From IMG/VR virus record IMGVR_UViG_3300033074_001631, positions 831 to 64,830 of that record: 64,000 nucleotides of DNA, one strand, 5' to 3'. The notes under the pieces were generated by a model. It was not told the origin of the DNA and ran no database searches. It was given only the letters and a program-made list of their open reading frames with translations. The stretch is from a virus (taxonomy: Duplodnaviria; Caudoviricetes). Numbering within the stretch: the stretch's first letter is position 1; each line of letters begins with the position of its first letter. Both the position numbers and the translations under genes were made by a program. Positions 3,551 through 35,628 of the stretch are shown piece by piece.

Positions 3551-4036
3551 TTACAAAGAAGCAACTATATATTCTAGACTTACATTTGAACCTGAGGCTT
3601 TTGCTTTTATTGTATCATAAAAATTAAAACTAGAATAATATTCTTGATCTACATAATTTTCAACAACATAGTCGTTTGTTGAAGAAACATTAAAATCAGC
3701 ATTTCCTAACATTAATGATTTTCCTGGGGATAAATTAAATATTGAACTTTCATTTTCAGTCGAAATTAAATATAAATCACATGAACCCGAATCAGATAGA
3801 TTAGTTATTCTAATATATTTTACTTGATCTTTTACAAACGAACCAGCCGTTTGTTGGGCTTCACTATCTACAAATTTAATGATTTCTATACCAGAACCAC
3901 TGAAATTTGTAGTTATTGTATCTATTCTTTTTATTATCTGATTTATTCCAGGGATTGTTATAGTATTTACAGAAGTTTCAATATTCCTATTAGGTAATGT
4001 TATTTGTTCTGAGATTGTTATTTTTAGGTCAGACAT
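3551..4036 (-). CDS. Hypothetical, probably structural protein
   Basis: 161 aa, beta-rich ORF in an operon-like arrangement. Confidence 0.55.
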   Translation of the reverse strand: MSDLKITISEQITLPNRNIETSVNTITIPGINQIIKRIDTITTNFSGSGIEIIKFVDSEAQQTAGSFVKDQVKYIRITNLSDSGSCDLYLISTENESSIFNLSPGKSLMLGNADFNVSSTNDYVVENYVDQEYYSSFNFYDTIKAKASGSNVSLEYIVASL

Positions 4037-4725
4037 TATAAATTATTTTTTAAATATGTTATTATTTTATCAACTACAGGATGTCTATGATTATTTATTA
4101 ATTTTATATAAGATATATCATCAATATTTTTTGATAGTTCTATTAGTAAATTCATCCCAGAATCTATTTTATTTTTTAAATCACATTGTAGTTTATCTCC
4201 ACAAAATATTAATTTACTGTTATTTCCTAATCTTCCTAAAATCAATTCTGTTTGAAGTTTGGTACAATTCTGGGCTTCATCTATTATTATTATATTATTA
4301 GAAAAAGTAAAACCTCTCAAAAACCCCAAAGGCATTACTTTTATTGATCCTTCTTGAATAAGTTTAGTAGATTTTTCTTTATTACCTACTAAACTATCCA
4401 TTATTTCATATATAGGAGAAGTTAAATATTCTAATTTAGAATCAACCCCTCCAGGAAGATATCCAATATCTTCCCCAGCAGTAATGAAAGGACGTGCTAT
4501 TATTATTTTATCTATTTCTTTATTAAATAATAAATCTAAAGCAATTTGGGTAGCTAAAGTTGTTTTACCCGTACCAGCAGAACCATCAATAACAGATATA
4601 GGATTATATAATATTTTACTTTTTGCTATTTTTTGTTCTTCATTTAAAGGTACTTTAAAATTTATTGGGTTTTTAGGTCTTTTTTTATCTTTGAAAACAT
4701 CATCTTCGTGGTGATTACTGCTCAT
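4036..4725 (-). CDS. phoH: PhoH-family ATPase
   Basis: GSAGTGKT, GYLPG, RGFTF, IIIDEAQN, LGRLG and GDKLQCD motifs. Confidence 0.92.
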   Translation of the reverse strand: MSSNHHEDDVFKDKKRPKNPINFKVPLNEEQKIAKSKILYNPISVIDGSAGTGKTTLATQIALDLLFNKEIDKIIIARPFITAGEDIGYLPGGVDSKLEYLTSPIYEIMDSLVGNKEKSTKLIQEGSIKVMPLGFLRGFTFSNNIIIIDEAQNCTKLQTELILGRLGNNSKLIFCGDKLQCDLKNKIDSGMNLLIELSKNIDDISYIKLINNHRHPVVDKIITYLKNNL

Positions 4726-4748
4726 ATCCTAATATTTTATTATAAATA

Positions 4749-5471
4749 TCATTTGTGGATAATTTTTACTAAGGGATCTATACCAGCTTCAACATGCATA
4801 TGATCAGGTAAACATAATTCAAAACCAAAACGTGAATCTAAAGGTAATACTAAATCAGTTTGAGAACCCCATCTAATTAAAGAAAATCTACTATTTTGGT
4901 TAAATCCTTCATTTTGGTCTATTGTAAAAGGAACTATAACATCTACATCTTCATCTGCTATTTGTATCATATAATATGAATATCTTAAAGAAGGAGAATA
5001 AACTTTATTCCACATTCTTTCATTATTTTTTACATAAGGAATCACATGTTTAGGGTTTACTATTCCTTTTAATAAATTCTTTTCAACAGCTAACATAGGT
5101 AAATTATTTGATTCAATAGAATCAAGTTGTTTATACTGTAATATTCCTGGAAAAGGAATCCTATTTATATGAACATCATAAAAAGACATAAATATTCCTA
5201 TAACTAAAGAAGGACTATTATATGTTTTATCCATCATCAAATCCTGAAGAGAATAATTCATTCCCTTTACTTCTACCATAGATTTAGTTGGATCTTTAAC
5301 CAATTTTTGATACAAAATTATACCATCAGCTGGGGAGTAAAAATATTCATTGTTTATATATGTAGGTCTCATAGGATCTCTGAAGAAGAAAGTATTACCT
5401 AATTCTACTAAAGATAATTTTTCTAATTCAGCTACATCAGTATCTAGCCATTCGTCAATAGTTTTAGCCAT
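4749..5471 (-). CDS. psd: Phosphatidylserine decarboxylase-like pyruvoyl enzyme
   Basis: FFRDPMR, SPADG, DVHINRIP and the WGSQT self-cleavage site; no N-terminal membrane anchor. Confidence 0.85.
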   Translation of the reverse strand: MAKTIDEWLDTDVAELEKLSLVELGNTFFFRDPMRPTYINNEYFYSPADGIILYQKLVKDPTKSMVEVKGMNYSLQDLMMDKTYNSPSLVIGIFMSFYDVHINRIPFPGILQYKQLDSIESNNLPMLAVEKNLLKGIVNPKHVIPYVKNNERMWNKVYSPSLRYSYYMIQIADEDVDVIVPFTIDQNEGFNQNSRFSLIRWGSQTDLVLPLDSRFGFELCLPDHMHVEAGIDPLVKIIHK

Positions 5472-5473
5472 CT

Positions 5474-6388
5474 TTATACTAAATCTTTATAATAATCAAT
5501 ATAATTTAAATTCATAACACAACATGAAAGTAAAGCCCCACTTTTAGTAAACTCAGATAAATTAAAAAACACAGGCTCCATTCCCTCTTTAGCACAAATA
5601 GCTTCTAATGAATTTATTTTATGTTTTTCATAATTATAATCTTCATCAGTTTTATTTAATTCAGATATATTAGAAGAACATAATATTAAATTACCCAAAC
5701 GTACTGAATTGGTTATACCCCCGAATGCATCGTCCTCATCAACGTCTATAATTTCGGTATAACGTTCTATATCGCGGATCTCCTCTTCATCGAACATCGC
5801 CGTACAAACCAAAGTTTTATTTTTACTAAGAGGGAAAATGGAACAATCTAAATGATATAAATATTCATCTACCATTTCTACTTCAATAATATTCATATTA
5901 AAATTTTCTTGCATCCATTCATAAGTTTGATAATCTGTTCTTATGCCAGACCCTCCTATATAATTATTATCTCCTATAAATTTTAAATCAGCTTCTCCTT
6001 CCCATTTATAAGGACACATATGGGTATTATACCCCATAAGTTTAAAAAAGGCTTCTCCTACTTTTTCTTCACCTATTCTAGGTTCTGAAGTATAATTTGA
6101 TAATATTATGTTATTTGAGTCTTTTATGTGGGGTAAATATATACCTAAATTAGCAACATATACTTGATCTTGAAAATTTCCAAATGAAGGTAATAGATAA
6201 ACCAAACTATCTCCAGACATGAAATTGTATAAATCCATCCATTGTCTGTAGGCCTTTGTTTTATTTATTTTTGAAGATTCAGGAGATAGTTCTTTTATCC
6301 AAATATTATTTGGGTTTTTATTATCTAATGTAAAAGGAAAATTCATTAAATAACTAGGAATACTTAATTGAGAAGGTGTTTCTTTCAT
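5474..6388 (-). CDS. Amidinotransferase / pentein-family enzyme (arginine dihydrolase- or DDAH-like)
   Basis: DQVYVANLG, RIGEE, WEGEAD, YHLDC and terminal SEFTKSGALLSC (catalytic Cys) follow pentein catalytic spacing. Confidence 0.85.
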   Translation of the reverse strand: MKETPSQLSIPSYLMNFPFTLDNKNPNNIWIKELSPESSKINKTKAYRQWMDLYNFMSGDSLVYLLPSFGNFQDQVYVANLGIYLPHIKDSNNIILSNYTSEPRIGEEKVGEAFFKLMGYNTHMCPYKWEGEADLKFIGDNNYIGGSGIRTDYQTYEWMQENFNMNIIEVEMVDEYLYHLDCSIFPLSKNKTLVCTAMFDEEEIRDIERYTEIIDVDEDDAFGGITNSVRLGNLILCSSNISELNKTDEDYNYEKHKINSLEAICAKEGMEPVFFNLSEFTKSGALLSCCVMNLNYIDYYKDLV

Positions 6389-6407: not shown

Positions 6408-6440
6408 TAAATATACAAAAATTAGTTAAAAAATCAAACT
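6408..6440 (-). promoter_or_regulatory. Bacteroidota-type promoter for the amidinotransferase-psd genes
   Basis: Minus strand GTTTGATTTTTTAACTAATTTTTGTATATTTA (TTTG, then TATATTTA). The TTTG overlaps the integrase stop codon. Confidence 0.5.
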
Positions 6441-7228
6441 AAAAAAGGAATATTTTTAAAATTATTTGCTAATTTAGTATAAATTTGAGTAGATTTTATA
6501 TTATTATGACCTAATAATTTTTGAATTTTGTTTAAATCTACTTTTTGTTCATACAAATGGGTAGCGTAACAATGTCTTAACAAATGAGGATGAAAATCTT
6601 TTCCAAAATATTTCTTAATTATTTTTTGGATAGATCCTCCTGAATATTGAGGTTTGCTTTGACCTTCAAAAAGATAAATCTTAGGAGAACATGTGATATA
6701 ATATTCTCTCAACAGCTTTAAAAGAGGTTCACTTATAGGAACAAATCTATCTTTTGATCCTTTCCCTTGAACTATTTTTATAAGATTTTGTCCCTTTAAA
6801 ATATGTTCAATCTTTAAATTTATTACTTCACTTAATCTTAACCCACAACCATACATTAAATTACATATAGCTTTATGTTTTATATTAGGTATAGAACTTA
6901 AAATATCTTTAATTGTATTATGAGAAACCAATGTAGGAAGGTATTCTCTTTTTTTAGCCCTAACAAACTTATATTTAAATTCTTTTCTCCCTAAAACTTT
7001 TATATATAAAAATCTTAAAGCCGCTATAACTTGATTTTGTTTAGAACGAGAAGAATTTTCAAAGTTATTAAGATATAATTGTATATCTCCCATATTTATT
7101 TTATACGGATTTCTATCTCCTAAAAATTTAATTATTTCTTTTAGATAAATATCGGATGTTTTTAATGAATTGTAGGATTTTGTTAAAATTATTTCCACGT
7201 TTTTAACAAAATTATTATTTAGTCCCAT
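6434..7228 (-). CDS. Tyrosine recombinase, integron-integrase-like N-domain, lacks the IntI I2 insertion
   Basis: Catalytic set intact: GLRLSE, GKGSKDR, HLLRH, LGH, TQIYT. N-terminal SRSKQNQVIAALRFLYIKVL resembles the IntI N-terminal domain. Confidence 0.92.
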   Translation of the reverse strand: MGLNNNFVKNVEIILTKSYNSLKTSDIYLKEIIKFLGDRNPYKINMGDIQLYLNNFENSSRSKQNQVIAALRFLYIKVLGRKEFKYKFVRAKKREYLPTLVSHNTIKDILSSIPNIKHKAICNLMYGCGLRLSEVINLKIEHILKGQNLIKIVQGKGSKDRFVPISEPLLKLLREYYITCSPKIYLFEGQSKPQYSGGSIQKIIKKYFGKDFHPHLLRHCYATHLYEQKVDLNKIQKLLGHNNIKSTQIYTKLANNFKNIPFLV

Positions 7229-7264
7229 ATAACCGTTGATTTTATTGCAGAAGATTTTGGTGAC

Positions 7265-7283
7265 ATCTAACCCCCCGTTATAT
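7265..7283 (+). other. attI-like simple recombination site
   Basis: ATCTAAC-CCCCC-GTTATAT (7-5-7), 37 nt upstream of the integrase start; no long hairpin arms; first GTTA of the array at 7277. Confidence 0.6.
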
Positions 7284-7336
7284 GCAATGCTACATTTCTA
7301 CTTTGTATTAAATTTCGTGGTTATAATCTTTTTGTT

Positions 7337-7963
7337 TTATTTTTTTCCTACGCTCTTTAAAAATGTTGATAATTTAACATCACTTTCGATTAAATTTAGG
7401 TTTTTATCATAAATATCCCAAACCCATTCTTTTGTATTATTCGCATCAATTTTTACATTTACAACACAAGCCACATCAATATTTTTAGTAACATTAAATA
7501 CCACTTGAAATTGTTTATCTCCAGTATTATATACTTTACAAGCATCACTTGACTTAAAAACAATTCCCCAACCACCATATAAAAAATCTTTTTGGTATCT
7601 ACTATCAATTTTCTTGTTAGTTAAATCAAAAGCAAACCCAAAATTACCATCAACAATTTGTTCTTTACTTTTTCTTGTTTTTGTGAATGATGAATAATAT
7701 GCACCAACGCCACGAAATCCATTTTGTAAAATAGAAGTTATATTTTCTTTGGTAGTTGAATGGAATAATAATGTATTTGTTGGTAATTTTATTGCTGAAT
7801 TTGGTTTGTATGAAAAACCTCTTTGTGGTGTATTTTCTAAATTATTAACAACATTGATAAAATCATCAATTGTATTTATTGTTGTAATATCTTTTTTTGA
7901 AACACTCTCCTTTAACATTTTTTCTCTAAATGTATCAATATATTTCCTCATTTCTTGACTCAT
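7337..7963 (-). CDS. Cassette 1 ORF: putative ADP-ribosyltransferase-fold protein (start re-called to MSQEM)
   Basis: LFHSTTKENITSILQNGF H-x-T motif; N-terminal MSQEMRKYIDTFREKMLKE; AATATTTATA late-type motif just upstream of ATG 7963. Confidence 0.6.
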   Translation of the reverse strand: MSQEMRKYIDTFREKMLKESVSKKDITTINTIDDFINVVNNLENTPQRGFSYKPNSAIKLPTNTLLFHSTTKENITSILQNGFRGVGAYYSSFTKTRKSKEQIVDGNFGFAFDLTNKKIDSRYQKDFLYGGWGIVFKSSDACKVYNTGDKQFQVVFNVTKNIDVACVVNVKIDANNTKEWVWDIYDKNLNLIESDVKLSTFLKSVGKK

Positions 7964-8070
7964 AATTTTCTTTATATATAAATATTCAAATTTTAAATTT
8001 TCAACCCACAAAAAATAAAACAAAAAGGTTCATCTCTCGTATTAACTTTTCTACAACATATCCGCACTGC

Positions 8071-8163
8071 ATATAACAAGGTGTATAAGAAAGTTTGCTA
8101 TAAAGTTCAGTGGTAATTGAAAGTTCGTCTAAGCAAACCTTCTCATACACCAAATCGTTATGT
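8071..8163 (+). repeat. attC-like site 1 (93 bp)
   Basis: ATATAAC-AA-GGTGTATAAGAAAGTTTGCT ... AGCAAACCTTCTCATACACC-AAATC-GTTATGT; arms match 18/20. Confidence 0.85.
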
Positions 8164-8174
8164 ACAATACTACC

Positions 8175-8429
8175 TTAGTACCCATAATGACGTTTTTTGT
8201 AATCTTCAAACGCATCCCATATAGTATCTCCTATCCCATAACATTGTGGTGATACATTTTCTTCCATCCATTTATTCAATCTATAATGTGGTTCTTCCCC
8301 AAGTTGTATTTCGTGAATATTAGTATTATCACTTTCAGAATTGAAGATTACTATTTTACCACCGTATCTCATTGTTACTATTGTCAATGGATAAATATCT
8401 TCAATCTTTTCAATTTTGTCTTTTTTCAT
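8175..8429 (-). CDS. Cassette 2 ORF, hypothetical
   Basis: 84 aa, between GTTATGTACA (8157) and TGTACATAAC (8461). Confidence 0.7.
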   Translation of the reverse strand: MKKDKIEKIEDIYPLTIVTMRYGGKIVIFNSESDNTNIHEIQLGEEPHYRLNKWMEENVSPQCYGIGDTIWDAFEDYKKRHYGY

Positions 8430-8463
8430 CTTTTTAAATTTATTTGTTAATAATCCGTACTGT

Positions 8464-8557
8464 ACATAACAAGGTGTATAAAATATAACCTATTATAGTT
8501 CAGTTGTTATTTAAAAGTTTGTGGTTAGGTTACATTTCATACACCCAACCGTTATAA
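8464..8557 (+). repeat. attC-like site 2 (94 bp)
   Basis: ACATAAC-AA-GGTGTATAAAATATAACCT ... AGGTTACATTTCATACACC-CAACC-GTTATAA; arms match 17/19. Confidence 0.85.
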
Positions 8558-8571
8558 GTAATAAAAATATG

Positions 8572-8781
8572 TTACATATCATAGTCTTTCAAACTTTCCA
8601 AAAGATTTTCAATACCTTCTTTGATAAGTCCGTTATATAACCCAACTTTATTCAAGTTATATTTATTTTGTAGTAAATCTTTTTTCAGTTTTTCCAACCA
8701 CATATTTTTACTACTTATAACATCAGATATATTCAATTCTGATGTCTTTTCTTCAAATGTTTTCATGTTTTTAAGTTTCAT
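8572..8781 (-). CDS. Cassette 3 ORF, hypothetical; starts inside attC3
   Basis: 69 aa, MKLKNMKTFEEKTSELNISDVISS; the ISDVISS segment is encoded by the attC3 left arm. Confidence 0.65.
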   Translation of the reverse strand: MKLKNMKTFEEKTSELNISDVISSKNMWLEKLKKDLLQNKYNLNKVGLYNGLIKEGIENLLESLKDYDM

Positions 8782-8846
8782 ATTGTTAAATTAATTTTAT
8801 ACTATATATTAAAAATCAGAACTAAATATATCTGTAACCGTTATCG
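8715..8846 (+). repeat. attC-like site 3 (132 bp)
   Basis: CTTATAAC-AT-CAGATATAT ... ATATATCTG-TAACC-GTTATCG. Confidence 0.75.
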
Positions 8847-8847
8847 G

Positions 8848-9180
8848 TCATGCTAAGAGACGTGCTAACCAATCGACAGTTTTTTGAATTTTACGACCTA
8901 AAAAAGTTTTCGCAAAAGTGTTTTTAAAATCTTTTTTCGCTAAATCTAAATCGTGACTGAGAAACTCGCTTGTGTTTGACAGTTTCCAAATATCTTCATT
9001 ACTAAGTTCTGTCCATTCTCGCATATCAGGTGTTTTATAATGATTTTCGTAAAACAGTTTTAGTTTTTGAAATTTATCAAAACTTATAGTTTTGGGTTTT
9101 TCAAGCCTTTCAATGCGTTTGAATAGGTGAAAGACAACTAAGCAGTTAATGATTAGTGAAATTGAAATTAAGTGTTCCAT
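8848..9180 (-). CDS. Cassette 4 ORF, N-terminally anchored protein
   Basis: 110 aa with a hydrophobic N-terminus; TGA stop overlaps the GTTATCGGTCA cassette start. Confidence 0.7.
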   Translation of the reverse strand: MEHLISISLIINCLVVFHLFKRIERLEKPKTISFDKFQKLKLFYENHYKTPDMREWTELSNEDIWKLSNTSEFLSHDLDLAKKDFKNTFAKTFLGRKIQKTVDWLARLLA

Positions 9181-9218
9181 TTGATTAAATTTTATTTGTT
9201 TGACAATGAAGCACGAAC

Positions 9219-9350
9219 CGATAACAGCACCTACCCAAAAGCGGGGGTGATGTGGTTAAATCGGGTTTTGTGCTTCTATTTAAGTTCATTGTTTATTGAC
9301 AGTTTTCGTTTTCAAAATCCCCGCCTTCGGGTAGCTGCAAACCGTTATAC
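9219..9350 (+). repeat. attC-like site 4 (132 bp)
   Basis: CGATAAC-A-GCACCTACCCAAAAGCGGGG ... CCCCGCCTTCGGGTAGCTGC-AAACC-GTTATAC; arms match 17/20. Confidence 0.85.
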
Positions 9351-9536
9351 ACAATATTTTTTCACTTTTTCACTTCTCTCAATGAAGAAATCTACTCTCT
9401 TTTCTAATTCATCAGAAGTTGCCATCGGTTTAAACTTAATACCGTGGGTATCTACCCAAGTTTTAACATCACAAGCACCATAAGCTTCTTCTTTTAGAAG
9501 TTCTATCAAAATTTCTTTAAGTTTATTTGTTTCCAT
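9345..9536 (-). CDS. Cassette 5 ORF b, hypothetical
   Basis: 63 aa; its TAA stop is the TTA of the cassette-start GTTA (9344). Confidence 0.65.
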   Translation of the reverse strand: METNKLKEILIELLKEEAYGACDVKTWVDTHGIKFKPMATSDELEKRVDFFIERSEKVKKYCV

Positions 9537-9789
9537 TTTTTCTTTGTTTAAGTTTGTTTTCTAATTCCTGAACAGCATTTTTCTTTTCTTCCAATTCTCT
9601 TTCGGATTTCTCAACTTCTTTTTTCAGCTCTTGATGATACTTTTCCATTTTTTTCCATTTAAGAACTGGATTTATTTCTGAATAAATATCATCAAATAAA
9701 TCCTTAATAGTTTTACCAAAAAGTATTTTACTCCAACTTACTTCTTCATTTAGAAAACTTTCCCATTTCTTAATCTTTATATCTTTCAT
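9523..9789 (-). CDS. Cassette 5 ORF a, coiled-coil protein with a head-protein-like leader
   Basis: 88 aa, MKDIKIKKWESFLNEE; C-terminal coiled coil. Confidence 0.65.
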   Translation of the reverse strand: MKDIKIKKWESFLNEEVSWSKILFGKTIKDLFDDIYSEINPVLKWKKMEKYHQELKKEVEKSERELEEKKNAVQELENKLKQRKNGNK

Positions 9790-9844
9790 ATTTAATTGAT
9801 TTATTTTTATTATATATTCTTAAATCAAAGTGAAAAAATACTTT

Positions 9845-9898
9845 GTATAACAAATGATAAACAACATTAAAACGATTGTTTATCATCGGACGTTAGCG
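9845..9898 (+). repeat. attC-like site 5 (54 bp, shortest)
   Basis: GTATAAC-AA-ATGATAAACAA-CATTAAAACGA-TTGTTTATCAT-CGGAC-GTTAGCG; perfect 11-bp arms. Confidence 0.85.
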
Positions 9899-10168
9899 GC
9901 AATCTTGAATGACGTTCACGCTACTAATTTCATCCCATTTTCCGAGAACTCTAACATACATTACTTTTCCGCAGGTGTCTATTACTACATATCTATACTC
10001 TTTGTCTGGTAAGGCGTAAACTTTTGCCTTTGGATACGCTTTTTCAACTGTTTCCATACACCTGCTATTATCAAGTGATTTATTTACGTCACTACAAGAA
10101 GTAAAGACTGCCGCTAACATCGCATATACGGCAATAGCGGCTACTGTGCTAATTTTAAAGTTTTTCAT
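9893..10168 (-). CDS. Cassette 6 ORF, putative lipoprotein
   Basis: Signal peptide ending FTSC. The signal peptide is encoded within attC6, and the stop is the TTA of GTTA 9892. Confidence 0.7.
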   Translation of the reverse strand: MKNFKISTVAAIAVYAMLAAVFTSCSDVNKSLDNSRCMETVEKAYPKAKVYALPDKEYRYVVIDTCGKVMYVRVLGKWDEISSVNVIQDCR

Positions 10169-10245
10169 TTCTATTTTACTTTTGTGGTTAATTCAACTTT
10201 TGTGCCTTGAAGCCCGCACGAACGGCAAGCCACAAAACGTTAGCG
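10112..10245 (+). repeat. attC-like site 6 (134 bp, poorly matched arms)
   Basis: CGCTAAC-AT... ...CAAAAC-GTTAGCG. The ends are intact but the inner arms barely pair. Confidence 0.6.
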
Positions 10246-10467
10246 AGCATAACAGATACAACTACCTTCACTATATCCTTTACATCGTTCACAGTAAGTC
10301 CAACTATCTTTAAACTCTTCCCAATCAACCCAATCATATTCATCTTGCCAAGCAAATAACTTCTCCAAATAATATTCAGAGTTACGCTCGCTAACATCAA
10401 GTAAACGCAAGTTTTCTTCCGTTATCTTTGATGTTAGTTTTTCAATTTTACTTTTGAATATATTCAT
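10240..10467 (-). CDS. Cassette 7 ORF, small protein with a C-terminal Cys cluster
   Basis: 75 aa, ends CERCKGYSEGSCICYAR; starts inside attC7; stop lies in GTTA 10239. Confidence 0.65.
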   Translation of the reverse strand: MNIFKSKIEKLTSKITEENLRLLDVSERNSEYYLEKLFAWQDEYDWVDWEEFKDSWTYCERCKGYSEGSCICYAR

Positions 10468-10521
10468 AATGTTGTTCCTTAAATTAAGTGAAAACCTGCG
10501 TTTACTTGCGGTACGTTAGGT
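10389..10521 (+). repeat. attC-like site 7 (133 bp)
   Basis: CGCTAAC-AT-CAAGTAAACGCA ... TGCGTTTACTTG-CGGTAC-GTTAGGT; perfect 12-bp arms. Confidence 0.85.
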
Positions 10522-10527
10522 GCAATG

Positions 10528-10785
10528 CTATTCGACACCATCACGATAAAATTTCTTATTCAAATTATGACAAGCAATCATTACATCTTCATAAGCACCT
10601 TTATATCGTGTCTTATTTTCGTTGTGAGTATCTATCACTTCCCATTTGTTATTTACACAAATCTTTTGAAATCTTCTTTCGGTGCTTATACTTGGCATTT
10701 TTACTTGTTCTTTAATTATTTCAATCATCTTTTCAAGTTTTGTGAGAAGCACTGCACCTAACAGCAAGTAAGCAATAGTTGCCAA
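10528..10785 (-). CDS. Cassette 8 ORF, hypothetical; starts inside attC8
   Basis: 85 aa; MATIAYLLLGAVL is encoded by the attC8 left arm. Confidence 0.55.
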   Translation of the reverse strand: MATIAYLLLGAVLLTKLEKMIEIIKEQVKMPSISTERRFQKICVNNKWEVIDTHNENKTRYKGAYEDVMIACHNLNKKFYRDGVE

Positions 10786-10849
10786 TAACTTCTCGGTTAA
10801 TAATTAAGTTCATCGTAGGCAACCATCGCCTACTTGCGAATCGTTAGCA
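10756..10849 (+). repeat. attC-like site 8 (94 bp)
   Basis: ACCTAAC-A-GCAAGTAAGCAATAGTTGCC ... GGCAACCATCGCCTACTTGC-GAATC-GTTAGCA; arms match 17/20. Confidence 0.85.
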
Positions 10850-10864
10850 CCAATAGCTACCTTA

Positions 10865-11152
10865 CTACTTCTTCTTTGGCTTAACATTTTTTACTTCACC
10901 AGTTGTTGTGTTTTTTAACTGAATATTTTTCAATTCATTTTTGCCATCATCAATCCAAATAAATTTAACTTTAGCAATATCAGAGTTCATTTTACCCTTA
11001 TATTCTTCACGCTCTTTTATTTTGGCAAAAGTTTGATTTACTTGATTAAGCCAAAGAAGAAAATCAATTGACAATCTTTCAAAATTTTCAGGCGTAGTTA
11101 CATTAACCAATTGCTCTAATGTTTCAATTTCGTATTTTTTTACTTTACTCAT
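10865..11152 (-). CDS. Cassette 9 ORF, hypothetical
   Basis: 95 aa, between GTTAGCACCA (10843) and TGTTGCTAAC (11185). Confidence 0.7.
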   Translation of the reverse strand: MSKVKKYEIETLEQLVNVTTPENFERLSIDFLLWLNQVNQTFAKIKEREEYKGKMNSDIAKVKFIWIDDGKNELKNIQLKNTTTGEVKNVKPKKK

Positions 11153-11187
11153 TCTATTTATGTTTTTATGTTAATAATCCGTACTGT

Positions 11188-11281
11188 TGCTAACAAGGTA
11201 TATATGCAATACCCTACTAAGGTTTATACTAAATTTTAAAGTTTCGGCTTCGGGTACTGCATATATGCCCAGCCGTTAGTT
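11188..11281 (+). repeat. attC-like site 9 (94 bp, last in the array)
   Basis: TGCTAAC-AA-GGTATATATGCAATACCC ... GGGTACTGCATATATGCC-CAGCC-GTTAGTT; arms match 16/18. Confidence 0.85.
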
Positions 11282-11282
11282 G

Positions 11283-11456
11283 CTATCTGTTTTTGTTCTT
11301 TTTTGTCCCACGCACTTTGGTTTTTTCAAAACCATTAGATTTTGATTCTCGTTCCAAAATATCCTGTGCCAAGTTTTTAAAATCTGTGTTCTCATCAATG
11401 GCTCTTTTGCTCAATGATTTTACACATTCATCTGATAGGTCAAGTAGTTTTTTCAT
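11283..11456 (-). CDS. 57-aa ribbon-helix-helix-like DNA-binding protein (not in ORF track)
   Basis: Hand translation MKKLLDLSDECVKSLSKRAIDENTDFKNLAQDILERE...; beta-helix-helix pattern; ATGA-type overlap with 11453..11758. Confidence 0.5.
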   Translation of the reverse strand: MKKLLDLSDECVKSLSKRAIDENTDFKNLAQDILERESKSNGFEKTKVRGTKKNKNR

Positions 11457-11758
11457 TTTATTATTATTTTTTGCGCTTTAAAACCTTCTCTTTTAATATA
11501 AAAAGGCGGTGATACTATGTATGCTTTTTTCAAATTTTCTTCCCCTATTTTTATTGCTTCTCCAATAGTTAAATCTTTAACCCATTCCCCGCTTGGTAAA
11601 ATATGAGCAATATAATGGGATGATGCTTTTTCATTCAATCTGCCCTCTTTTTCTAATAAAGAAAAAATAAATGAGTTTTGTTTATCAGATAACCAAGCCT
11701 GTTTGCCATTCGCAAGGGCTTTATCATAAATTGATTTTGCTAATTCTATTGAGTTCAT
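11453..11758 (-). CDS. Hypothetical protein
   Basis: 101-aa ORF with a promoter-like GTATATTTA near 11780. Confidence 0.6.
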   Translation of the reverse strand: MNSIELAKSIYDKALANGKQAWLSDKQNSFIFSLLEKEGRLNEKASSHYIAHILPSGEWVKDLTIGEAIKIGEENLKKAYIVSPPFYIKREGFKAQKIIIK

Positions 11759-11809
11759 ATTGTTCTAATTTTCTATAAATATACACCATATATACGCTAT
11801 TTCCCATAG

Positions 11810-12388
11810 TTAAATTTTGTTTATTTCAAACCCCATCCAAACGGAACGATATAACCCATGAATATTCTCATATGTGTCTCCATATAATTTCCCGTTTATT
11901 ACTGCAACAGCATGTCCTTGAAGTAGTAACACAAATCGACCAATTGGATTATTTTCCATAAATGATTTCAAAGTATAACCTGTGGGGTTTTTGTATTTTT
12001 TGTTTATAAGTGTTTTGTTTAAACCGATTTTAACACTGAAATGTTCTTTTGAAGGGTGGTAACCTAAATAATTTATTTTATAACCATTCTCAATTGTATT
12101 AATAATATTTTTGCAATAAAAATATAATAAAGTACCTCTTCTATTTACACGATTCAGTTTTGTTTTGACCCAAATATGAGATTGTTCATATGAGAGATCC
12201 AAGGCTATCATAAAAGACCTTACAACGCAATCATTAGATTCATGTCTAGCTAACCAACTTTGTTTACATACTAGATCTATAGTATCAACATATAAACCAG
12301 GTCTTAAAATTTCAACCTCTTTACCACGCCAAAGTATTTTTTCAGTAATTTGCATAACTTTTTTTAAATTATTCCGGCAAAAGACCAT
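11810..12388 (-). CDS. Hypothetical, possible papain-like Cys/His enzyme (likely start 12355)
   Basis: NDCVVRS and GHAVAV motifs. Confidence 0.45.
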   Translation of the reverse strand: MVFCRNNLKKVMQITEKILWRGKEVEILRPGLYVDTIDLVCKQSWLARHESNDCVVRSFMIALDLSYEQSHIWVKTKLNRVNRRGTLLYFYCKNIINTIENGYKINYLGYHPSKEHFSVKIGLNKTLINKKYKNPTGYTLKSFMENNPIGRFVLLLQGHAVAVINGKLYGDTYENIHGLYRSVWMGFEINKI

Positions 12389-12596
12389 TATTTTCTAAAG
12401 CCATCCATAAACGCTCTTTCCAAGTCTCATTTTTAACTCCTTCGATAAGATCTTTATCATTAGAACCGTTAAGGGTAGCTTGACCTACTAAAACAAGAGC
12501 TTTTTCAATACATTCTTGAAAGTTTTCAATTTTGCCTTCTTTCAAAAATATTTTTGATGATTCCCAGAGTTGAGTGATTGGACCGTTGATTTTCAT
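12369..12596 (-). CDS. Hypothetical protein
   Basis: 75 aa, directly downstream of a promoter-like element. Confidence 0.6.
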   Translation of the reverse strand: MKINGPITQLWESSKIFLKEGKIENFQECIEKALVLVGQATLNGSNDKDLIEGVKNETWKERLWMALENNGLLPE

Positions 12597-12667: not shown

Positions 12668-14149
12668 TTATGAAAAATTTTTCACAAATTTAGTGGTTCC
12701 ACAATCCCATATTTTAGTATAACCCAATTCTTCCATGATTTCAAATTCGGTTTTATTAACATCACAACCCATTTTTTTTAATATTTTTTTATTAAAATTA
12801 AATCTATGATATCTTTTTAAATAATCTTTAGTATAAAAATAATTAGGAGAAGATTCTTTTTCTTTTTTAAATCCAATTTTTAAATACATATTATTATTAG
12901 GATCTGTCCATCTGTTATCTGAATATGAATATATTTTAGTAGGATTAAAATTTTTTATAAAAAAATTTAATAACTTTGAAGCTCCTCCTATTACATTATA
13001 TTTAGTAGCATATCTTGATAATTCATATATTTTTTTATCATTTTTATTTCCCCCCAAAGCAATTCTAGGATGAGAAAAAGTCATCACAGCCACTAATTCT
13101 TCTTTTAAAAATAAACCCAATTTTATTGAACTTCTATCAGATCCTTGTATATGGTAATTATCTAAAAATTGGTTTTTTTCTTTAAACAATATTTCTTTTA
13201 TAGAACATTTTCTAGCATATATTTTTGTTTCTGTAATATTTAATACAGAACGTAATTTATTTTTAACTATGTTTTTTTTATTTAACCATTCATCTGAAAA
13301 TATTTGTATTAATCTAATGTTATTATCGATAGCTTGTTTATATTTATTAAAATGATAATCTTTAAATCTATTAGCTTTTTCTGAATGCCAATATAGTCCA
13401 TTATATTCTATTCCTATATTTAGTTCGGGTAAATATATATCTATTTCATTTTTAGGAAAAAGTCTAACATTTGTTTTAATTTCTCCTTTATATATATTTT
13501 TTATAAATTCTAATAATTCTAATTCTTCCTTAGATTGTTTACCTATGTTAGAAAATACTTCCCAATCCCAGTGCCCTTTTATATAATCTCTATGATATGT
13601 TTCTTTACCTAAATCACAATTTTTACCATTTTCTAGTATAGAAACAGGTTCTCCACAACCACATTTACATGCAGGTATTTTGTTATCTAATACATATTTT
13701 ATTATATATTCAGATTTAGATATATTAGAATGTTTTTTTGTTATATGGTACATTAAATGTTGATTACTTTTAACCTTTTCACCACATATATTACATTTGA
13801 ATAAAGATTGTTCTTTTAATTTATTTTCTTTAATATTTTTAGGTCTAAATTCTCCATATTTAATAATATATTCTTCAGTTTTAATATTATGGGCCCACTT
13901 CAAATGCATTGCCATAGATCTTACTGATTCAGAAGAATTACATATTTTACATAAAACTTCATTTCTTTTGTCTCTGGTTGATTTTAATGAAAAATTTTCA
14001 TGTTCAAATCTCCAAACATACCCCCCAGCAGTTTTATATTTTCCTTCACAACACCTTAAAATAGAATCTCTATTAGAAATTTTTACATCTTTTATATCAT
14101 TATATAACTTTACTAAATGTCCTTCTAAAGAATATTGTTTTATTTTCAT
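12668..14149 (-). CDS. Composite homing endonuclease-like protein (NUMOD1, zinc fingers, Vsr/Hef-like nuclease, GNAT-like C-terminus)
   Basis: CCEGKYKTAGGYVWRF (NUMOD1); CxxC...HxxxxH fingers; EIDIYLPELNIGIEYNGLYWH; YELSRY...GGASKL...YSDNRW. Confidence 0.7.
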   Translation of the reverse strand: MKIKQYSLEGHLVKLYNDIKDVKISNRDSILRCCEGKYKTAGGYVWRFEHENFSLKSTRDKRNEVLCKICNSSESVRSMAMHLKWAHNIKTEEYIIKYGEFRPKNIKENKLKEQSLFKCNICGEKVKSNQHLMYHITKKHSNISKSEYIIKYVLDNKIPACKCGCGEPVSILENGKNCDLGKETYHRDYIKGHWDWEVFSNIGKQSKEELELLEFIKNIYKGEIKTNVRLFPKNEIDIYLPELNIGIEYNGLYWHSEKANRFKDYHFNKYKQAIDNNIRLIQIFSDEWLNKKNIVKNKLRSVLNITETKIYARKCSIKEILFKEKNQFLDNYHIQGSDRSSIKLGLFLKEELVAVMTFSHPRIALGGNKNDKKIYELSRYATKYNVIGGASKLLNFFIKNFNPTKIYSYSDNRWTDPNNNMYLKIGFKKEKESSPNYFYTKDYLKRYHRFNFNKKILKKMGCDVNKTEFEIMEELGYTKIWDCGTTKFVKNFS

Positions 14150-17608: not shown

Positions 17609-19971
17609 ATAAAATCTTCTAAGTTTTTATTTGATTTTATTTCTTTAACTATATTAGATAAAGATAAAGATTTATTTTCTCTAACAGGAACACAATTAGG
17701 AACCTGTTTTCCGTTTTTAGATTTTATCCCTATTTGTTTATATCCTTTCCAGCAGGCTTCATCTTCGGAAATAGTAGATTTTACTATTTTTAGATTTTTT
17801 TTATTAGCATATTTTTTAGCTTGTTCTGGTGTATCAAAAAACATATCTATTTGTTTTGAACCATCTGGTTTTTCCAAAACATAAACAGGATTTTTTTTAG
17901 GTCCTGATTTAGATATCATGTATGTGTTTTCTTTATTCCAAGCTGTTGAACCTATTTCAGGTTTATATGATGGGTTGGATTCATTGAATTGACTCTCAAA
18001 TCTAACTGTAATTCCCCTTTGATTAAATTCTGATTCTAATTCTGATTCTAAAGAATCTAATGTTTCTTCATCTTCAGGAAAAAACCAATATCCCTCACGG
18101 GGATTCCATACCCCATAATAATCAGTTTCACCCAACATGTCTTTTATGGCATTATTATCTATTGGGGTTCTGCCTTTTACTATTAACCCCGAACCATCAT
18201 AATCCCCCATCATACCTGAAGATTCATCTAGTGCGGAATAAACAGTATTATCACTATCATACCAATCTTCTACTACATATTTATCATCTCTGATTTTATT
18301 AACATGTACAGCATATTGTCCTTCTCCATATTTATCTGCATATTTTTTTGCATCTTCTAAATTGTCAAAATATGCTGGGGTTGTTGGTTCTTTTTGGGTT
18401 TCTTTTAATTTATTGTTCTTAAAATAAACTAAAGCTAATTGTTTTTTAGTGTCGGGATGTAATCTTAAATATTCTTCATATGATATGCCTGAATGCTTTG
18501 CTATTGGTTTTCCTTCAACATGTTTCAAATAATCTAAATCTAGATTTTCATGCTCATTTACTATTTGATTTCCTTGGATTCTTCTTAAAACTATTCCATA
18601 AACATCCCCGTTTCCAAAATCAACATTGACCATATCATCCATTACTTTTACAACTTTTCCCTTTTTTCCATTCTTTATAAGAGTGTCACCTATTTTTGGT
18701 TTATATTTATCTTTTTGTTCTTCTAAAGATTCATTAGTTTTAGCCTTTTTTAAATCTTGAGCTTTAACCCAAACTTCTGGTCTTCCACCAAATTTAATTG
18801 ATTTGATATAAATTCTTCCATCATCAGCAATACGTGTTACTTTATGTTTGATTCCTTTATATAAGACAACATCATCAGATTCAAATTCATTTTCAGAAGG
18901 TTTAACCATAGAACCTATTGAGCGGGCTTCTAATTCATTTATGGGTTTAGTAGAAAAATTGCCCCACTCTCCTCTTATTGTTCTTATTTCATTATCGTTT
19001 TTATCATATACTGTAACTATGTAAATAGCATTCATGTTATAGTTACGAGCAGGAGTATAGTCTTCTATTATTCCATAGTATCCTTGAGATGATGGGTATA
19101 TTTCACCTACATCTCCTCTAAAATAAACTTTGTCACCAATATCACTACCTGATCCTTCTTTTATTGGATTTTTTCTATCTTGTAAAATTTTCTCAATAGA
19201 AGAAGGATTAACACCTTTTTCTTTCAAAAATAATTCTAATTCTTCATCCGGTAAAGTATCTATCTGAAATTTGTATTTTCTTTTTGCTGAGTTGTAAGAG
19301 TATTCAACAGCATTATATCCCCCATCTTCAGGGGTTTTTATATTAGTTTGTGGATTATCAGTAATTCTTCCAAACATAGGGTGAGTATAAATATTTTCTT
19401 TTAAAATATCAGGAGCTTTTTCATATCCACTAGCTTTATATTTACCTTTTACTTCTTTAGTAGGAGTGGATTCTTTATACCCCAACCCTTTAACACCAAA
19501 CTGACCTTCTTTGGTATAATACATTATATCTTTAGCTAAATTTTTAGCTACAATCTGTTTTAATTCTTCTACTGTTTTTTCAGAATTTTTGGGGTCTTTC
19601 ATTTCAGCATAATAACCGGTAAGAAACTGAGGTCCATAGATGTTATCAATATTTTTAACATCTTTATAATCATAACCACGAGTAGTCATGTCCGTTGCTT
19701 CTTTAGTGGTTTCTTTTTCTTCAGCTTTAGCTGCTTCCGAAATATTTTCTTTAAAAATAGAAAACCAATCAGGTTGTTTTTTTGAACCAGTTACTAACCC
19801 CCCAATAAATCTTTCAGATATTATGGATTTATTTTTTAAAATTGTAACAGCGTTTTCAAAGGTAGTATATTGATTTATATATTGAGGAAAAATTCTTTTT
19901 ATTGATTTCATAAAAAAATCTTTATTTCCTTTTCCTTCTAAAATTAAATCATATTGTGTTTGTAAATCCAT
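17605..19971 (-). CDS. Modular head-associated polyprotein
   Basis: 788 aa of unrelated 50-90-aa modules separated by (L/I/V/F)xE; adjacent to the prohead protease gene. Confidence 0.6.
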   Translation of the reverse strand: MDLQTQYDLILEGKGNKDFFMKSIKRIFPQYINQYTTFENAVTILKNKSIISERFIGGLVTGSKKQPDWFSIFKENISEAAKAEEKETTKEATDMTTRGYDYKDVKNIDNIYGPQFLTGYYAEMKDPKNSEKTVEELKQIVAKNLAKDIMYYTKEGQFGVKGLGYKESTPTKEVKGKYKASGYEKAPDILKENIYTHPMFGRITDNPQTNIKTPEDGGYNAVEYSYNSAKRKYKFQIDTLPDEELELFLKEKGVNPSSIEKILQDRKNPIKEGSGSDIGDKVYFRGDVGEIYPSSQGYYGIIEDYTPARNYNMNAIYIVTVYDKNDNEIRTIRGEWGNFSTKPINELEARSIGSMVKPSENEFESDDVVLYKGIKHKVTRIADDGRIYIKSIKFGGRPEVWVKAQDLKKAKTNESLEEQKDKYKPKIGDTLIKNGKKGKVVKVMDDMVNVDFGNGDVYGIVLRRIQGNQIVNEHENLDLDYLKHVEGKPIAKHSGISYEEYLRLHPDTKKQLALVYFKNNKLKETQKEPTTPAYFDNLEDAKKYADKYGEGQYAVHVNKIRDDKYVVEDWYDSDNTVYSALDESSGMMGDYDGSGLIVKGRTPIDNNAIKDMLGETDYYGVWNPREGYWFFPEDEETLDSLESELESEFNQRGITVRFESQFNESNPSYKPEIGSTAWNKENTYMISKSGPKKNPVYVLEKPDGSKQIDMFFDTPEQAKKYANKKNLKIVKSTISEDEACWKGYKQIGIKSKNGKQVPNCVPVRENKSLSLSNIVKEIKSNKNLEDFI

Positions 19972-34724: not shown

Positions 34725-35628
34725 CTGAAGATATTTGGGTTCTTGTAAAATATGTTAAAGCATTACCTATTTGTCTAACTAATTTTTTATCACCTAATTT
34801 TTTAGAGGCTTCTAGGGCTTGCATAAGTTCTTTTTGAACTTCTTGGGGTGTTGTTAATGTCCCTTCATCTGAAGTTTCAATTTCTGTTTCTTCAGTTTCA
34901 GTTTCTTCTTCTGGTTCTTCTTTTTTAGCTTCATCTACTGTTAACATATCTATAAGATCTTTAGCTGTCTCTACAGAAATGTCTAATACTTGAGCCAATT
35001 CTTCAGGAGTAGTATCTCCTTCAGAAGCAACATATTCAGAAGCTTTATTTAATAAATCTCCCACCTCAGGATCAGACCCTACCCCATATTCTATTTTTCT
35101 TGATTCTCTTTCATAATCTTCTATTTCTTTTAAAACCATTTCTTTTATTTTAGATTTTAAAGAAGATTTGGTATAAATATTTGATTCTTTTAAATTTAAT
35201 TCTTTTTTAACACTTGCTTTTAAATAACCCTTCTTAATAATGTTATCAATTCCTCTTACTAAAGGTAGATTGGGGTCATTTGGCTCATATTCATATTCAT
35301 TTTCTTTAAAAGTTAACTCACCATCAACCAACACATATATACTACTCACATCAATATTTTTATTATCATCATCTGTTGATTCTTTTATTATTAATCCTTT
35401 CTTTTTAGCATATTTTTTTGCTTGTTCTTCATTGTCAAAAAACATATCTAATTGTTCTGAACCATCAGGTTTTTCTAAAACATATGTTGGGTTATCTTTT
35501 GAACCAGATTTAGATATTATATATTCTTCCCCTTTAGTTCCCATAGAGGATGTTCTGAATTGCCATTCATTAATCCCAGCCAATTTTTGCATTCTTTGGA
35601 ATTCTTCGGTTAGTTGTTGTTTTTTCAT
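34708..35628 (-). CDS. Modular acidic protein with an RMQKLAG leader
   Basis: MKKQQLTEEFQRMQKLAGINE; contains a 42-aa module shared with 17605..19971. Confidence 0.65.
   Translation of the reverse strand: MKKQQLTEEFQRMQKLAGINEWQFRTSSMGTKGEEYIISKSGSKDNPTYVLEKPDGSEQLDMFFDNEEQAKKYAKKKGLIIKESTDDDNKNIDVSSIYVLVDGELTFKENEYEYEPNDPNLPLVRGIDNIIKKGYLKASVKKELNLKESNIYTKSSLKSKIKEMVLKEIEDYERESRKIEYGVGSDPEVGDLLNKASEYVASEGDTTPEELAQVLDISVETAKDLIDMLTVDEAKKEEPEEETETEETEIETSDEGTLTTPQEVQKELMQALEASKKLGDKKLVRQIGNALTYFTRTQISSDEEMA

Follow-up and report, generated by a model that had tools for sequence, protein, structure and literature searches.

Does the tyrosine recombinase encoded at positions 6434-7228 (minus strand) of this viral DNA serve the row of small genes and repeated palindromes that adjoins it, in the manner of an integron integrase, or is it an ordinary phage recombinase that happens to lie beside them? 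The window analyzed here comprises 64,000 nt of the 64,830-nt record IMGVR_UViG_3300033074_001631, the completeness of which is estimated at 40%. The window is AT-rich (approximately 25% GC), and nearly all genes in its first 40 kb are carried on the minus strand. Its backbone is T4-like, that of a virulent-type large Flavobacterium-type phage, and the nearest cultured phage is the T4-like Flavobacterium phage immuto (160 kb), with which it shares a capsid protein at 60% identity. No lysogeny genes were seen besides the recombinase, which is the only one on the contig. The capsid and PhoH genes of immuto lie approximately 2 kb apart, with neither a recombinase homologue nor an array module between them, and no recombinase homologue is present in that phage; in the window, the gap between the same two genes measures approximately 9.5 kb and includes both the array and the recombinase. 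Because immuto lacks the module between these two genes, the platform can be regarded as an accessory module within a conserved structural region.

The genes immediately past the recombinase encode PhoH and a phosphatidylserine decarboxylase homologue (4036-5471, minus strand), both auxiliary metabolic genes, and the neighboring ORF at 5474-6388 (304 aa) falls in phrog_12759, a group of unknown function. Elsewhere in the window, a 150-nt direct repeat with 77% identity between its copies is found at 17774-17923 and 35375-35524, 17.6 kb apart; the two copies probably lie inside paralogous genes.

The recombinase ORF encodes a 264-aa, Xer-like protein that matches the Pfam models Phage_integrase (3e-35) and Phage_int_SAM_4, and in which a Pfam search did not find an arm-binding domain. 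Its catalytic residues (R131, K156, H215-x-x-R218, H241 and Y250) are invariant or nearly so in 99 relatives. Among NCBIfam models, the best score is obtained with archaeal XerA (NF040815; 168.9 bits, below the cut-off of 220). The cut-offs are likewise not reached for the IntI models TIGR02249 (151.8 bits; cut-off 265) and NF011946 (84.5 bits; cut-off 435), the XerD model TIGR02225 (144.7 bits; cut-off 330) or the XerC model TIGR02224 (140.8 bits; cut-off 335).

Integron integrases are recognized by their I2 insert, and several comparisons indicate that the window enzyme does not possess it. TIGR02249 aligns to the protein in two pieces (model positions 5-179 and 256-303), skipping approximately 76 positions (180-255). 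In the alignment to VchIntIA (PDB ID: 2a3v), query residues 207-212 stand opposite chain residues 209-264, leaving approximately 50 chain residues unmatched. The spacing between the lysine motif (KGxK) and HxLRH is 59 residues in the window recombinase, 59-63 in the phage family, 59-70 in Bacteroidota relatives and 68-72 in E. coli XerC/D, compared to 106-107 in two IntI proteins. The AlphaFold model (pLDDT 89.8) contains just a short strand and a loop between helices 167-180 and 197-208, with no extra helix where I2 would sit; its closest structural match is VchIntIA (TMq 0.78), with XerA second. A sequence-only reading of this DNA had described an ORF of this length with the full catalytic set, the I2 segment missing between the lysine motif and HxLRH, and an IntI-like N-terminal domain. 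The first two of these are confirmed; the third does not hold, since the N-terminal domain is the general SAM_4 core-binding domain and is therefore not specific to IntI.

Ten plus-strand sites ending in C-GTTA-N4-CAAT or a near variant, one attI-like and nine attC-like, occupy the interval from 7.2 to 11.3 kb. The exact GTTA-N4-CAAT motif occurs seven times on both strands of the 64-kb window, and six of these occurrences fall in this interval, all on the plus strand. The attI-like core site (7261-7288, plus strand) is composed of a left arm (7261-7271), a 5-nt C spacer (7272-7276) and a right arm with the sequence GTTA-N4-CAAT (7277-7288), the two arms forming inverted repeats as in a classical core site. 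The recombinase start codon is 49 nt from this site, where we infer crossover to take place between G7277 and T7278. The nine attC-like sites are imperfect palindromes of 64-144 nt, in which the outer boxes are ACTG-N4-TAAC on the left, at the very start of each site, and C-GTTA-N4-CAAT on the right.

These sites delimit nine cassettes spanning 7278-11275. Every cassette ORF lies on the minus strand, opposite to the polarity of the sites and co-oriented with the recombinase gene. Cassette 1 (7278-8157) carries ORF 7337-8023 (228 aa) and the attC-like site 8066-8168; cassette 2 (8158-8551) carries ORF 8175-8429 (84 aa) and site 8459-8562; cassette 3 (8552-8840) carries ORF 8572-8781 (69 aa), which starts within its site, 8710-8851; and cassette 4 (8841-9344) carries ORF 8848-9180 (110 aa) and site 9214-9355. 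Cassette 5 (9345-9892) encodes two ORFs (9345-9536 and 9523-9789) and ends in a short site of the 64-nt class (9840-9903), while cassette 6 (9893-10239) contains ORF 9893-10168 (91 aa, 38% GC), the stop codon of which is the TTA of the core, and site 10107-10250, the least canonical in its fold. The remaining cassettes are cassette 7 (10240-10515), with ORF 10240-10467 (75 aa) and site 10384-10526; cassette 8 (10516-10843), with ORF 10528-10785 (85 aa) and site 10751-10854; and the last, cassette 9 (10844-11275), with ORF 10865-11152 (95 aa) and site 11183-11286. The cassettes are tightly packed, and in four of them the start codon lies inside the palindrome. Read on the minus strand, the core TTA supplies a TAA stop codon in three cassettes (9892-9895, 10239-10242 and 9344-9347), so that the reading frame terminates at the first bases of the cassette.

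The GC content of the cassettes (0.24-0.38) contrasts with that of the recombinase gene and the backbone (0.22-0.25). Sequence searches of Pfam, PHROGs, PADLOC and the PDB returned nothing usable for the cassette ORFs. The product of cassette 1 has a weak, sub-threshold match to a PARP catalytic domain (E 0.0036, residues 70-104) and may be an ADP-ribosyltransferase-like accessory protein. Past the last attC-like site, four ORFs (11283-12596, minus strand) have a cassette-like GC content of 0.29-0.33 and no flanking sites; they may be old cassettes with decayed sites. Between the array and the capsid gene, the 493-aa ORF at 12668-14149 (minus strand) yields weak matches to a C2H2 zinc finger and a PvuRts1I-like N-terminal domain, and may be a homing-endonuclease-like gene.

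The outer boxes of the attC-like sites reveal how the array may have been assembled. It is the right-box tail of the preceding site, and not the right box of its own site, that the N4 of each left box complements. Complementarity between the box of one site and the tail of the site before it was detected by script at eight of the nine junctions, and the same pattern is seen in seven related phage loci; the ninth junction (8840 to 9214) falls just over the mismatch limit of the script, and its complementarity was read by eye. This shifted complementarity is the pattern that would be left by circular cassettes, each with one complete site, inserted singly at G|TT. No partner box for the right-box tail of cassette 9 is found within 3 kb to its right, and the only match further on, at approximately 14672 inside the capsid gene, was taken as a chance occurrence.

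The organization of the window recurs in related loci. Approximately 40 metagenomic proteins are 56-72% identical to the recombinase. In every phage locus that was fetched, on contigs of up to 180 kb encoding a family-B DNA polymerase and GroES/GroEL, 4-20 small genes without Pfam hits lie upstream of the recombinase gene, in rows that carry the same type of site as the window. In at least eight related loci (including L003, L005, L006, L008 and L106-L110), a distance of 40-50 nt separates the first site from the start codon of the recombinase gene, and the left half of attI is only partly conserved among relatives. We scored the association in a set of 80 IMG/VR loci encoding relatives 40-71% identical to the recombinase, 49 of which have at least 3 kb of upstream sequence and 74 of which served for downstream counts. 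A chain detector that does not require the C before GTT has a background of up to 5 in AT-rich DNA and is strand-symmetric, and the orientation-specific counts therefore use CGTT. Chains with a length of at least three in the polarity of the window were detected upstream of the recombinase in 32 of 49 viral loci, compared to none of 49 upstream in the opposite polarity and none of 74 downstream in either polarity.

What these loci have in common is only the recombinase gene and the families of attC-like sites; the contents of the arrays are wholly different despite recombinases that are approximately 70% identical, and no cassette gene common to the window and any fetched locus was found. Site 9840-9903 is 95-97% identical to two sites in loci L006 and L007, and site 10751-10854 is 88% identical to a site in L008. 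A Bacteroidales genome (L080) contains a site that matches site 9214-9355 (stretch 9203-9346) at 75% identity across 144 nt. The array of L006/L007 includes an N6/N4 DNA methyltransferase cassette and a small protein with an FtsK-gamma domain (5485-6273 and 8228-8443).

Genomic relatives of the recombinase, at 37-49% identity, belong almost entirely to the Bacteroidota. Several of them are followed by arrays downstream of the recombinase gene, in the classical order of gene and then attC, with 10 chain links in Catalinimonas alkaloidigena (L012), 8-9 in Chryseolinea (L076) and 5-6 in Flavobacterium palustre (L069). About two dozen of 80 Bacteroidota contigs (L016-L095) end less than 270 nt downstream of the recombinase stop codon, which suggests that a repeat, either an array or a multi-copy element, breaks the assemblies at this point. 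Many Bacteroidota relatives (L029, L033, L060, L069 and others) are 344-380 aa long, being extended at the N-terminus by 80-100 residues and carrying a conserved SPFDDL tail at the C-terminus; neither feature occurs in the phage enzymes.

Natural variants provide a second line of evidence. The cultured Polaribacter phages Freya_1 to Freya_10 carry a relative that is 34% identical to the recombinase, and their records vary in length by cassette-sized steps. The flanks of Freya_1, Freya_9 and Freya_10 are 100% identical. Freya_1 and Freya_10 differ by a 4.9-kb block of 12 small genes located between the last common cassette and the left half of attI, and Freya_9 and Freya_10 differ by a single 307-nt segment with one 81-aa gene, at the same insertion point and ending exactly at the conserved AAC. 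As in integrons, these breakpoints locate the crossover to the right box next to attI. Comparison of the Freya genomes also shows recent gain or loss of cassettes in the wider phage clade.

Taken together, these data make it likely that the ORF encodes the site-specific recombinase of a phage-borne, integron-like gene-capture platform, the link between enzyme and sites being drawn from their association and from the natural variants. An ordinary lysogeny integrase, or a Xer/Cre-like multimer resolvase, that adjoins the array incidentally while a host enzyme or homologous recombination moves the cassettes is an unlikely explanation. It has precedents, in that the Freya authors read the integrase gene as a sign of a temperate lifestyle, the relatives in Freya, Leef and Ingeline being published as 'integrase, hence potentially temperate' (PMC8776804), and simple Xer-like recombinases drive phage integration elsewhere (PMC8138268). 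Furthermore, arrays without a recombinase exist: Polaribacter phage P12002L has sites of the window's class and no recombinase gene, which means that another enzyme or homologous recombination could also move cassettes, and the attC families common to different arrays would permit homologous exchange. An incidental neighbor would not, however, be expected to keep the same position and polarity relative to the array in 32 of 49 viral loci with controls at zero, nor a spacing of 40-50 nt to the attI-like site across differing neighborhoods. The Freya indels, moreover, end at the AAC/GTT triplet beside attI and not within shared hairpin sequence, and IntI is nearly absent from the host phylum, in which IntegronFinder 2.0 reports a complete integron in only one Bacteroidetes genome (PMC9024848). 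Finally, the T4-like backbone, with its single recombinase and no other lysogeny gene seen, also speaks against this explanation.

To place the recombinase among its relatives, we inferred two trees that include two IntI and two E. coli Xer proteins as the only references and for which no root was inferred. In a quick tree of 103 rows, the two IntI form a clade (support 96), the 99 insert-less proteins are grouped with a support of 98 and the family of the window with a support of 100. In a more careful tree of 32 rows, the corresponding values are 100/96 for IntI, 82/88 for the insert-less group and 100/99 for the family of the window; a clade rich in phages, to which Freya belongs, is recovered at 98/98, with the Freya integrase on a long branch. 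Neither tree places the recombinase within the clade formed by the two IntI, and the branch that separates them has a support of 98 in the first tree and 82/88 in the second. A likely chromosomal Xer adjoining aroQ (L013) falls within the insert-less group. The best description of the family is Xer-related and distinct from IntI.

That the enzyme is instead a true member of the IntI lineage which has secondarily lost I2, and not part of a separate family, is a reading to which we assign little probability. The IntI model scores close to the best model (151.8 and 168.9 bits) despite its 76 skipped positions, VchIntIA is the best structural match, and Smyshlyaev et al. (2021) note that integrons require the insert in order to function, but that it is 'not fully conserved' in their integron-like subgroup (PMC8138268). 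Loss of I2 within IntI is nevertheless difficult to reconcile with trees in which the two IntI form a clade of their own apart from 28 to 99 insert-less proteins, albeit with only 82/88 support in the careful tree, and in which the insert-less group takes in the likely chromosomal Xer L013.

The sequence-only reading had proposed a distinct cassette-integrase family whose members would be missed or mislabeled as XerD by standard tools. The missing I2, the fixed attI-like site with its array and the recurrence of both in phages and Bacteroidota support a family of this kind, which the trees recover with strong support as a clade separate from the two sampled IntI, and many homologue flanks contain arrays of the same type. 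As for the tools, JGI names several of the metagenomic relatives XerD and the IntI cut-offs are failed; because the family stands outside the two sampled IntI and is named in this way, tools that require the insert would miss it.

We then considered the folding of the sites. In six of the nine window sites, the bottom strand is predicted to adopt a canonical fold that opens with an R helix of 6 bp, formed between TAACGR and YTGTTA. Next come a bulge of 3-4 nt on the 5' side, beside the R box, a stem of approximately 20 bp interrupted by no more than one 1x1 internal loop, and a variable loop. No single-base extrahelical bulges were seen in these six minimum-energy folds. In the structure of VchIntIA bound to attC, such bulged bases are what I2 contacts. 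Folding z-scores of the window sites range from -1.9 to -4.5, and the minimum-energy structure is non-canonical at sites 10107-10250 and 10384-10526. In a set of 51 sites drawn from seven phage loci, an arm pairs with its cognate partner at 12.8 of 14 positions and with non-cognate arms at 9.2 of 14, even as the same 51 sites contain 43 distinct arm sequences, indicating that it is the pairing that is conserved and not the sequence. Three length classes of attC-like sites (approximately 64, 104 and 142 nt) occur in the window and in loci L001-L008, and the loop of the 64-nt class is nearly invariant, with the same 10 nt in the window and in P12002L.

The two strands of these sites are not equivalent. 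Bottom-strand G.T wobbles number 108, compared to 18 for the top strand. Stability also favors the bottom strand, in 47 of 52 phage sites and in 43 of 51 script-detected sites of Bacteroidota arrays, the latter list containing a small number of duplicate or doubtful entries. This strand is mRNA-sense in the phages and antisense to the genes in the Bacteroidota arrays. The same bias despite reversed gene orientation means that it tracks the polarity of the sites and not mRNA sense, which argues for a single-stranded DNA substrate over an RNA element. At the same time, the duplex half of the site (L'-spacer-R') resembles a core site, and its anatomy is thus also compatible with double-strand recombination. 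Regulatory intergenic hairpins (terminators, processing signals or promoter-stem-loops) among ordinary small phage genes are a most improbable account of the repeats and 'cassettes': hairpins do lie between nearly all the small genes, and with an mRNA-sense bottom strand in the phages G.U-compatible hairpins would form in RNA too, but the bias persists where the bottom strand is antisense, neither RNA hairpins nor the promoter-stem-loop shuffling of T4-type phages would produce the shifted complementarity between outer boxes and tails, and the attI half-site and the exact cassette-sized Freya indels are left unexplained.

Among known systems, the closest to the gene-capture platform proposed here are integrons, especially sedentary chromosomal ones. 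Both have a recombinase gene beside a fixed insertion site, followed by single-gene, promoter-poor cassettes that end in imperfect palindromes of variable length (approximately 64, 104 or 142 nt in this case), with conserved AAC/GTT core triplets, crossover at G|TT and a favored bottom strand. In both, furthermore, the recombinase gene is divergent from the polarity of the sites, and the complementarity of the boxes is shifted by one cassette. In contrast with IntI, the window enzyme has no I2, lies outside the two sampled IntI and scores below the IntI cut-offs. In place of extrahelical bulges of a single base, the window stems carry a 3-4-nt bulge beside the R box, and each outer box measures 12 nt and contains a conserved position that is C.A on the top strand and G.T on the bottom strand. 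The cassette genes run against the polarity of the sites, pointing toward the recombinase and in the direction of the phage's own transcription, and the platform resides in the genome of a virulent-type phage.

Clusters of attC sites without an integrase (CALINs) were reported in virulent phages, including P12002L, by Qi et al. (2023), who viewed the phage sites as stray integron parts (PMC9892861). The P12002L sites are of the same class as those of the window, and P12002L_attC1, the sole site of six that IntI1 failed to recombine (PMC9892861), belongs to the 64-nt class of site 9840-9903. Unlike CALINs, the window and many of its relatives have a dedicated insert-less recombinase at the end of the array. 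One further CALIN phage from that study, MW202573 ('Myoviridae'), was considered as a relative and discarded, as it is an unrelated 35-kb P22-like genome.

With the Xer recombinases (XerC/D and archaeal XerA), the window enzyme shares its size and a two-domain architecture with no arm-binding or I2 domain, and a likely chromosomal Xer from Marinimicrobia is 46% identical to it. It differs from them in being phage-borne, in adjoining a cassette array and in scoring below all Xer model cut-offs; instead of dif-like duplexes of 28-30 bp, its sites are long folded palindromes whose inner arms vary. The insert-less arrays of the Bacteroidota share with the window the recombinase superfamily (37-49% identity), the logic of the boxes, the bottom-strand bias and some attC families, and differ from it in the location of the array downstream of the recombinase, in the classical orientation of their genes and in the N-terminal extension of many of their enzymes. 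A search of the full-text literature, covering journals other than subscription titles, found no description of an insert-less cassette recombinase, Bacteroidota arrays included; published relatives have been read as lysogeny integrases or as integrase-less CALINs.

By analogy with integrons, the recombinase would bind double-stranded attI and the folded bottom strand of attC. One strand would then be exchanged at the conserved AAC/GTT triplet, the product would be resolved by replication, and new cassettes would enter beside the recombinase gene. Along the same lines, we infer that the window enzyme catalyzes these exchanges and that the folded bottom strand is what it uses. The sequence-only reading had also suggested a different mechanism of site recognition, which is plausible in view of stems that have no single-base bulges and of a P12002L_attC1 refractory to IntI1.

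If the platform operates without I2, the requirement for this insert is not a general one. A functional platform of this kind would also explain the 'orphan' attC clusters of virulent phages, and would bring to light, in Bacteroidota and in the phages of this phylum, a large class of elements for gene capture currently labeled XerD or 'integrase'. In flavobacterial phages, a temperate lifestyle could no longer be safely deduced from an integrase gene, and the variable accessory-gene regions would gain a defined mechanism. A broader proposition, which we hold to be evenly balanced, is that integron-type capture needs no I2 and that a separate, Xer-derived lineage runs such platforms in Bacteroidota chromosomes and in phages. 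Were this the case, the attC families shared by both would let cassettes pass between host and virus, and the lineage would either have arisen independently or preserve an ancestral form of the integron.
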